64,000 nucleotides of DNA from Escherichia coli (GTDB taxonomy: Bacteria > Pseudomonadota > Gammaproteobacteria > Enterobacterales > Enterobacteriaceae), in the NCBI RefSeq assembly GCF_030013205.1, contig NZ_CP122648.1; one strand, 5' to 3'. Shown here in pieces: positions 62,316-63,799 of the stretch. A program made the position numbers and the translations under genes. The notes under the pieces are model-generated. The model saw only the letters and a list, made by a program, of their open reading frames with translations. It made no database searches and was not told where the DNA came from. Position 1 is the first letter of the stretch; each line of letters begins with the position of its first letter.

Positions 62316-62395
62316 GTTGCCTAAAATTTATGCCTTTTAAAATCATGATATTAGAAGCACTGTTTTTTAACGATGGCGACAAAATGGCGGCAGCG

Positions 62396-62614
62396 TCAAA
62401 GAGAGAGCGCCACCTGTCCTGATTTCATTGGATGCGGCTGAACCGGATTTGACTCTTTTGGCGTTGCAATCGAACGAACAAAAGTTTCATGGGTAACAAA
62501 AGTATGGCTGCAGTTAATGTTCTGGCACTGGTTGTAACGCTCTTTGGTCAATGAAGATACCTGAAAACTGCTGCGAGTATGGGCGGCACTTCCACACAGT
62601 GGGCAAATCATCAT
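62396..62614 (-). CDS. ogr: Ogr/Delta-family zinc-finger late-gene activator (P2-like)
   Basis: CPLC...TKERYNQCQN(I)NCS..TF.T.E..R.I..P...PHP..SGQ aligns with P2 Ogr; start placed at MMICPLCG. Confidence 0.85.
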   Translation of the reverse strand: MMICPLCGSAAHTRSSFQVSSLTKERYNQCQNINCSHTFVTHETFVRSIATPKESNPVQPHPMKSGQVALSL

Positions 62615-62704
62615 TTTTCGAGTTCTCCCCATTTTTGCTAAATTCACAATAATGATACCGCATTATTCCATTTTGCAAACTTAAAAGTTCTCCATTGCGA
62701 AGAA

Positions 62705-63799
62705 TCATTCCATTTCGAAATCATCAATCCTCACTTCAAGCTCCAGACTGGTCGTAAAACCGTTATCCGGGCTGACGGTATGAGTCAGAGTCGTAATGGT
62801 CCATTCCGCATCATCTATCGGTTGTTTAAAGCCACTAACTTTCACTGGCATTTCCGTGTAAAGATCTGCCCGCCCTTCCGCCAGTTGTAGCGAGAATGAC
62901 GCAACGCCGCGTTGCAGGCGTTCCCACTGCATTTTCGCTGCCCGTTCAGCGTTGCTCCGGTTGGCATAAGTGCGATTAAGTACCAGCACGTTTTCATCCG
63001 TACCCACCAGGTAATCGCCCTGCTTCGCTTCCGGCTCTTTCTTCTGCTTCTTAGTTCTGCGCTTACGCTTCACCGTGGTACTTTCTTTCTTCGCAGGTTC
63101 GCGGGTATGCAACCAGCTGGCAATTACGCCCGTGTAGGCTCCGCGATCTGCCAGGGTAAAGCGGTGACTGTCGCCGTCCTTGCGTGTGATAGTGATCACT
63201 GGCAGTGGTTTACCAGTGGCGTTTTTGCCCTGCCCCTGCCGGATGAATAACAGATTGCCATTTTTCACCGACGCGATGGCACCGTACTGTCGCGCCAGCC
63301 GCATCAGAAAACTGCCGTCACTCTCATTAGTCTGGTCTATATGCTCCACGGGCTTATCCGACAGGTCTTTACCCAGTGCCATCTTCAGCTTGTGCCGCGC
63401 GGCTATTTCCTTCACCACTTCCCCGACGGTGGTCTTGTGCCACGACTTTTCACGACGGGTATTCAGCGTTTCCCGAAAATCAGCACTTCGCGCCCGGATA
63501 GTCAGGCGGTCCGGTGCGCCAGTGTGTTCAATCTCGTCCACCGTGAATGCCCCTTTCGGGAAAAGCGGCTGCCCCTTCCAGCCCAGCGCCAGCGTAATGA
63601 CCGCACCACGGCGCGGCAGCACGATTTTTCCGTCGGCGTCGTCCAGCTCCAGATCAAGCTGGTCTGCGTCAAAGCCCCGGTTATCCGTCAGCGTCAGCCC
63701 CATCAGGCGGTTGTCCAGCACAGTGGTGATACCTTCGTTGACTTCAACAACGCGCACCCCGTGGTGAAAATCATTCATTTGTATACCCACCATAGCCAA
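62705..63799 (-). CDS. P2 gpD-like tail protein (late control gene D), probably N-terminally altered
   Basis: 364 aa with conserved gpD blocks (LTLTDNRGF.ADQLD.ELDDADG, TIRARSADFR, KWLHT, GRADLYTEMPVKVSGFK); no gpU-like gene upstream. Confidence 0.8.
   Translation of the reverse strand: MAMVGIQMNDFHHGVRVVEVNEGITTVLDNRLMGLTLTDNRGFDADQLDLELDDADGKIVLPRRGAVITLALGWKGQPLFPKGAFTVDEIEHTGAPDRLTIRARSADFRETLNTRREKSWHKTTVGEVVKEIAARHKLKMALGKDLSDKPVEHIDQTNESDGSFLMRLARQYGAIASVKNGNLLFIRQGQGKNATGKPLPVITITRKDGDSHRFTLADRGAYTGVIASWLHTREPAKKESTTVKRKRRTKKQKKEPEAKQGDYLVGTDENVLVLNRTYANRSNAERAAKMQWERLQRGVASFSLQLAEGRADLYTEMPVKVSGFKQPIDDAEWTITTLTHTVSPDNGFTTSLELEVRIDDFEME

Follow-up and report, generated by a model that had tools for sequence, protein, structure and literature searches.

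The attR end of a probable defective P2/186-type prophage, with an in-frame FI'-'D fusion, beside an intact rybB gene of Escherichia coli

We analysed a stretch of 64,000 nucleotides of Escherichia coli DNA (contig NZ_CP122648.1, assembly GCF_030013205.1), referred to below as the window. From position 62100 on, the window holds the end of ybjL, the sRNA gene rybB and then one small and one large open reading frame (ORF) on the minus strand, and the following features were delimited:

62204..62230, plus strand: sigma-E-type promoter of rybB (GAACTT at 62204-62209, a 16-nt spacer, TCTTA at 62226-62230).
62240-62318 by Rfam, 62237-62315 by the K-12 annotation, plus strand: rybB, intact, a full-length match to RF00110.
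62305..62331, no strand assigned: att core at the ogr-proximal junction (attR), 27 nt, GTGGGTTTTTTGTTGCCTAAAATTTAT, overlapping the U-tract of the rybB terminator.
62374..62395, no strand assigned: putative Int arm-type sites, 22 nt, TGGCGACA AAA TGGCGGCA (= TGGCGACAAAATGGCGGCAGCG).
62396..62614, minus strand: ogr, an intact gene for a late-gene activator of the 186 B type, 72 residues (PF04606, PHROG 603).
62652..62679, minus strand: putative ogr promoter from a consensus scan, sigma-70-like (TTTGCA, a 16-nt spacer, TATCAT).
62705..63778 from ATG (63799 from TTG), minus strand: in-frame FI'-'D fusion ORF, FI residues 1-16 followed by gpD residues 26-366.
63803..63867, minus strand: P_F, a predicted Ogr-dependent late promoter of the pJ type, placed by alignment to 186 pJ and P2 pF.
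63946..64000, plus strand: the 5' part of a cargo gene for an acyltransferase, which occupies the P2 Z/fun slot and is truncated where the window stops (PGAP WP_063502572.1 in strains K_EC180 and ETEC1748).

The rybB gene matches Rfam family RF00110 at 104.1 bits (gathering score 40) over all of the model, positions 1-79 of 79. By sequence comparison the region upstream of it shows no difference from K-12, including GAACTT-N16-TCTTA, which we take to be a match to the sigma-E consensus; the preliminary description of this DNA, made from the sequence without database searches, had called the gene and its sigma-E promoter intact, and both comparisons bear this out. The terminator hairpin folds, with a single A-to-G change that gives a G-U pair: position 62304 in the terminator stem is G here and A in K-12. 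The same G is found in the second att copy, on the integrase side of the prophage described below, and it may be phage-derived or a strain polymorphism. rybB is unharmed by the prophage that adjoins it.

The att core consists of the U-tract of the rybB terminator and the next 16 nt. The att junction had been expected in 62316-62395; a core was found, but at 62305-62331, so that it begins about 11 nt before that interval. The integrase-side end of the prophage lies beyond the window and is known from related genomes only. In K_EC180 a direct repeat of the core, identical at 25 of 27 positions (L001 31987-32013), adjoins rcdA at a distance of 3 nt from the end of that gene, and a tyrosine integrase is encoded at this far end of the prophage (L001 30860-31912). 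In K-12 the site is empty, and the rybB-rcdA gap of 19 nt shows the host flanks rejoined. In addition, the record of Klebsiella phage 4LV2017 has an attR annotated at the same position, and it matches our core. The repeated core, the tyrosine integrase gene and the unoccupied K-12 site together establish site-specific integration at the 3' end of rybB, the rybB terminator having been rebuilt from the phage copy of the core. In the mechanism that we propose, recombination by the tyrosine integrase of the phage would have taken place between a 27-nt core in attP and a stretch of identical sequence at the 3' end of rybB. Because the phage core copy rebuilds the terminator, rybB and the convergent rcdA are both intact. 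Furthermore, the 22-mer at 62374-62395 recurs with 21 of 22 identities at the opposite end of the prophage, where it falls within the 3' end of int (L001 31873-31894). Read as its reverse complement, it is similar to YAYCGCCAYTY, the consensus given for Int arm sites in the 186 record NC_001317; we infer that these repeats are Int arm sites.

The small minus-strand ORF is ogr. Its product matches Pfam family PF04606 (Ogr_Delta) at 5.9e-22 as well as PHROG 603, keeps the four cysteines C4, C7, C30 and C35, and belongs to the Ogr/Delta C4 zinc-finger late activators of P2-like prophages, in agreement with the earlier view of ogr as a retained gene for a late-gene activator. The protein is 100% identical to Ogr of Klebsiella phage 4LV2017, 55% to P2 Ogr and 54% to 186 B, and its accession, WP_000972391.1, is found likewise in ATCC 8739. 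Upstream of the gene, the -10 element TATCAT of the putative promoter aligns with the annotated -10 of 186 pB and is overlapped by an inverted repeat, AATAATG-N6-CATTATT, the inner positions of which vary between phages. In 186 the late activator is repressed by CI through operators that overlap its promoter; when the prophage's own CI/apl switch region was set against the sequence upstream of ogr, no operator-like motif common to the two was seen. ogr is probably still expressed. Downstream of the gene (62300-62400, minus strand), consensus scanning and folding gave no convincing terminator hairpin with a U-run; whereas P2 and 186 have a terminator after ogr or B, the ogr of this prophage is without a clear one. 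Transcription from ogr or from P_F would continue into rybB, which is convergent, in the antisense direction, and the same is expected in every lysogen of this phage type.

The large minus-strand ORF matches PHROG 52 at 8e-167 and Pfam PF05954 (Phage_GPD) at 6.5e-27, which upholds its previous assignment to gpD, a family of tail/baseplate hub proteins. The order D-ogr-att is that of P2 and 186, with gpD directly upstream of ogr and ogr beside att, and within the window no gpU gene lies upstream of the D ORF, as had been noted. The N-terminus of the ORF had been described as about 45 residues lacking the conserved gpD start; it is indeed not that of gpD, but it is shorter: counted from the ATG at 63778 it has 16 residues, and counted from the TTG at 63799 it has 23. 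The foreign N-terminus consists of residues 1-16 of the tail-sheath protein FI, MNDFHHGVRVVEVNEG. DNA alignments to FI and D of strain ETEC6333 and to D of ATCC 8739, together with protein alignments, place the junction at 63731/63732: positions 63732-63830 show no difference from ETEC6333 over the leader and the beginning of the tail-sheath gene FI, and D runs from 63731 downward. FI codon 16 is therein joined to D codon 26, and the deletion took FI, FII, E, E', T, U and the first 25 codons of D, a gap that equals 5.8 kb of the reference Klebsiella phage 4LV2017. Thus the suspected deletion scar is real, and its endpoints, which had been left for alignment with related phages, are defined to the nucleotide. 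PGAP names the ORF “late control D, missing N-terminus”; the alignments show a fusion of sheath and hub that an internal deletion produced. We also considered microhomology at the join, where GAAGGCA and an ITTV-coding stretch are shared nearby, and found the actual join, GAAGG/TATCACC, at neither; since it does not fall on the short similarities between FI and D, we claim no deletion mechanism.

Positions 62100-64000 were compared by megablast with complete E. coli genomes, and seven matched at 100% identity over the full length, two of them annotated (K_EC180 and ETEC1748). All seven are swine ETEC: one is from South Korea and six are ETEC-named, one of these confirmed from Belgium. That the FI'-'D junction could be an assembly artefact is scarcely conceivable, given that the identical junction stands in seven complete genomes from South Korea and from the ETEC-named set. 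The deletion was found in 7 of 5426 complete genomes, all of one lineage.

Upstream of the fusion ORF, P_F comprises a TGT-N12-ACA site at 63850-63867 (TGTACCAGATGCTATACA, minus strand), a -10 element GAGAAT at 63810-63815 and, by alignment, a start near 63803. The site aligns with the annotated B-binding site of 186 pJ and with the activator site of P2 pF, and it has the arrangement of P2-like late promoters, in which TGT-N12-ACA is centred near -55. Exact TGT-N12-ACA sites at matching distances were present in all seven late-promoter regions checked, which are of the same phage lineage, and the distance from the centre of the site to the start codon is 80-87 nt at P_F and P_O and 55-56 nt at P_V. 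The motif alone is uninformative, as the window contains 9 copies against 14 expected by chance. The alignments argue that an Ogr-dependent P_F is retained upstream of the fusion ORF, and presumably it still responds to Ogr. Ogr, if made, would drive the FI'-'D fusion from P_F with read-through into ogr, and P_V, given Ogr, would drive the remaining baseplate and tail-fibre genes. This feedback wiring is not new, since in the P2 record one terminator already serves both the F operon and ogr.

The preliminary description took the element to end at 63799, with only the last two genes of a P2-type late region remaining. On both points our analysis disagrees. Phage DNA runs to the window end at 64000, positions 63732-64000 being 100% identical to the FI 5' end, P_F and the acyltransferase start of the prophage, and in both of the annotated junction-sharing genomes (2/2), K_EC180 and ETEC1748, about 10 kb more prophage follows after window position 64000, up to the integrase and the second att copy. 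The order past this position is acyltransferase, G, H, I (frameshifted), J, W, V, an FRG-domain gene, S, R', CII', an ORF in the position of apl, CI, a small ORF, the integrase and then the host gene rcdA. From the genomes that are identical across the junction, the prophage very probably continues in the same way past 64000 in the genome of the window. A minimal two-gene scar, D'-ogr, with the rest of the prophage gone, would be much like the ogr-D' remnant that K-12 carries at the sRNA gene cyaR (Archer et al. 2011, PMC3032704, Table 2), and within the window itself only ogr and the D-like ORF are visible; it is nevertheless highly improbable here, as the DNA upstream of the D ORF is phage and not host and is followed by the further 10 kb in both annotated genomes. 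The preliminary description had also allowed that its view would fail if the rest of an intact P2-like prophage lay beyond the window: in the two annotated genomes the rest is present, but it is not intact.

The prophage thus seen in the junction-sharing genomes retains its tail-fibre genes G and H and baseplate genes as well. A second deletion, at the abutment of R' and CII', corresponds to 16.5 kb of 4LV2017; with it went the genes for head, lysis and replication. Gene I carries a frameshift. Of the structural, lysis and replication genes that a viable prophage needs, FI to U are deleted and those for head, lysis and replication are absent in these genomes, leaving a remnant of about 11.8 kb compared with about 33.4 kb for the full reference phage. 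The two internal deletions and the frameshift make the prophage defective. Sister swine strains of the ETEC6333 type share the R'/CII' deletion and the frameshift in I; they retain FI, FII, E, E' and T' and have a different deletion, T'-'D. In the sequence of events that we infer, the R'-CII' deletion, common to the sister swine strains, would have come first, and the FI'-'D deletion, confined to a small swine ETEC lineage, later.

Two cargo genes are associated with the remnant. The acyltransferase gene at the window end, divergent from P_F, continues in K_EC180 at L001 21847-22902, and its product matches Pfam Acyl_transf_3 at 6.3e-17; searches of PADLOC, PHROGs and NCBIfam gave no match for it. 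An assignment to a defence system was rejected, Acyl_transf_3 of Pfam being its sole match among these resources, and the protein may be a modifier of surface polysaccharide that acts in lysogenic conversion. In K_EC180 the FRG-domain gene (L001 27554-28489, about 5.7 kb beyond window position 64000) stands between S and V, where P2 has its orf30 cargo slot. Its product matches the PADLOC candidate defence family PDC-S15 at 8.5e-32, and the ORF is 744 nt long in ETEC6333 compared with 936 nt in K_EC180.

Taken together, the anatomy of the region, its junctions, the att repeats and its relatives identify the end of an integrated phage, and we consider it about 90% probable that the region is the attR (ogr-proximal) end of a defective P2/186-type (Peduoviridae) prophage at rybB, with integration and decay as proposed above. 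The core of the preliminary description, that a defective prophage of the P2 type ends here (D-ogr-att) next to an undamaged rybB, is accordingly borne out by the family matches, the att core and the gene order.

The arrangement ybjL-rybB-ogr-D was found in 880 of 5426 complete E. coli genomes (about 16%) at a coverage of at least 80%. In ATCC 8739 (Crooks) the ogr-D block is 98.7% identical and occupies the same position, and the late region is largely complete, with several genes frameshifted or partial. P2-like prophages integrated at rybB were described in E. coli W, B and Crooks as Rybb*W, Rybb*B and Rybb*Cr (Archer et al. 2011, PMC3032704), a prophage Kpn38RybB at rybB in K. pneumoniae (PMC4048246), and the defence hotspot #29, “Felsduovirus in rybB”, was reported to hold only Felsduovirus-type prophages, in 109 genomes (Hochhauser et al. 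2023, PMC10121019). The remnant shares with the Rybb* prophages and with hotspot #29 the rybB 3' site, the phage type and the location of cargo in the usual P2 slots. It is more decayed than these prophages, with two internal deletions and a frameshift (about 11.8 kb vs about 33 kb for a full phage), and it carries as cargo an acyltransferase and an FRG-domain protein, whereas E. coli B, for example, carries retron Ec86. The literature names Felsduovirus for the rybB site, and the closest phage records to our remnant are Klebsiella prophages of the Elveevirus type.

Among these, phage 4LV2017 (NC_047818, Peduoviridae, Elveevirus) is the nearest reference: the ogr-D DNA is 97% identical to it, and at the protein level Ogr is 100%, D 97% and Int 94% identical. 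In its record, attL and attR lie at the 3' end of rybB and have the core found here; its late-promoter architecture matches too. Unlike the remnant, 4LV2017 is full-length (33.5 kb), comes from another host genus, has a CI that is about 48% identical and carries a retron as cargo. The ogrK-yegZ (ogr-D') remnant of K-12 resembles the present one in that the D'-ogr end is kept beside an sRNA gene used as att; it differs in keeping only ogr and a fragment of D, and in lying at cyaR rather than rybB, while here, as judged from the junction-identical genomes, about one third of the prophage is still present, with int, CI and the two att copies among what is left. With 186 (NC_001317) and P2 (NC_001895) the remnant shares the order FI...D-ogr/B-attP-int, the C4 zinc-finger activator, TGT-N12-ACA sites centred near -55 and Int arm-type repeats beside the core. 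The proteins are more distant, Ogr/B and D being 54-56% identical, Int 55% and CI 33%, and the att sites differ, since 186 integrates in the tRNA gene ileY and P2 in its own chromosomal sites, and the remnant lies at rybB. The immunity region is 186-like because it holds CI and CII homologues.

Retention of ogr and of two late promoters raises the question whether the remnant might be a domesticated module under selection, in which Ogr, P_F (FI'-'D-ogr) and P_V (baseplate and tail-fibre genes) would work as a self-activating circuit, or would trans-activate or sense incoming P2-like phages or satellites, or in which the truncated hub would poison the tails of superinfecting phages. Such a reading could draw on an intact ogr, identical to that of apparently complete prophages, on the exact Ogr-type sites kept in both late promoters, on the in-frame fusion, and on the cargo genes for the acyltransferase and the FRG/PDC-S15 candidate, both intact ORFs while structural genes decay. 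We regard it as improbable, since an in-frame join has a one-in-three chance of arising, prophage ends beside essential or useful host genes are expected to be lost last, and the feedback wiring is already that of wild-type P2. Moreover, the deletion is recent, as it is confined to the one lineage of 7 in 5426 genomes, and therefore there has been little time for selection to become visible. As regards function, we see a slender possibility that Ogr, P_F, now only about 1.2 kb upstream of ogr, and the P_V-driven baseplate and tail-fibre genes make up a live self-reinforcing circuit in a particle-less prophage, which could trans-activate or sense P2-like phages or Ogr-responsive satellites, the FI'-'D protein perhaps disturbing tail assembly. 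The reading that we prefer for the region remains that of a prophage end left by integration and decay.

That Ogr, as a type of activator that acts on P4-type satellites, might address the island at 14.6-25.2 kb of the window had been raised as speculative, and our analysis gives this no support. The island (14601-25250, 10.6 kb) lies between clpS and yljB/cspD, is 100% identical in strain KGu016 and is absent from K_EC180. By PGAP and PHROG it encodes an integrase, AlpA-like and Icd-like proteins, a primase, SSB, a ClpP-like prohead protease/major-capsid fusion and a DUF1441 TerS. Delta, Psu and Sid were neither named in it by PGAP nor matched among the ten ORFs scanned, and the set that marks P4-type satellites, comprising these three, epsilon and promoters responsive to Ogr or Delta, is not what the island holds. 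A P4-type identity was thus rejected in favour of a PICI-like gene set without Delta, Psu or Sid, and Ogr-responsive sites were rejected as well: the sole TGT-N12-ACA of the island falls within the primase ORF, and the count over the window is 9 vs 14 expected. The island appears from its gene content to be a PICI-like satellite, possibly capsid-forming, and not of the P4 type.

The absence of this island from K_EC180 also means that the window is not equal to K_EC180 upstream of the prophage, and we rejected the identification of the window with that strain there. Three single-base indels separate the window from K_EC180, near 46650, 49980 and 58980. The one near 49980 is in artJ, which is annotated as frameshifted in K_EC180; this frameshift, and perhaps that in CI of K_EC180 too, may be strain-specific or a sequencing error, and CI is intact in ETEC1748 and ETEC6333. 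In addition, about 2.6 kb lies between ybjQ and ybjP (about 43440-46060; L001 1338-3964) compared with 126 bp in ATCC 8739, and this insert holds a truncated gene for a pentapeptide-repeat protein, a pseudogene according to PGAP.

Since rybB is a published integration hotspot for P2-like phages, the type of element described here was already known, and the value of the finding lies mainly in annotation: the sheath-hub fusion is explained, rybB is seen to be unharmed, and the region is recognised as a decayed member of a common, published family. The junction at 63731/63732 is furthermore convenient for recognising one group of swine ETEC strains as a lineage.
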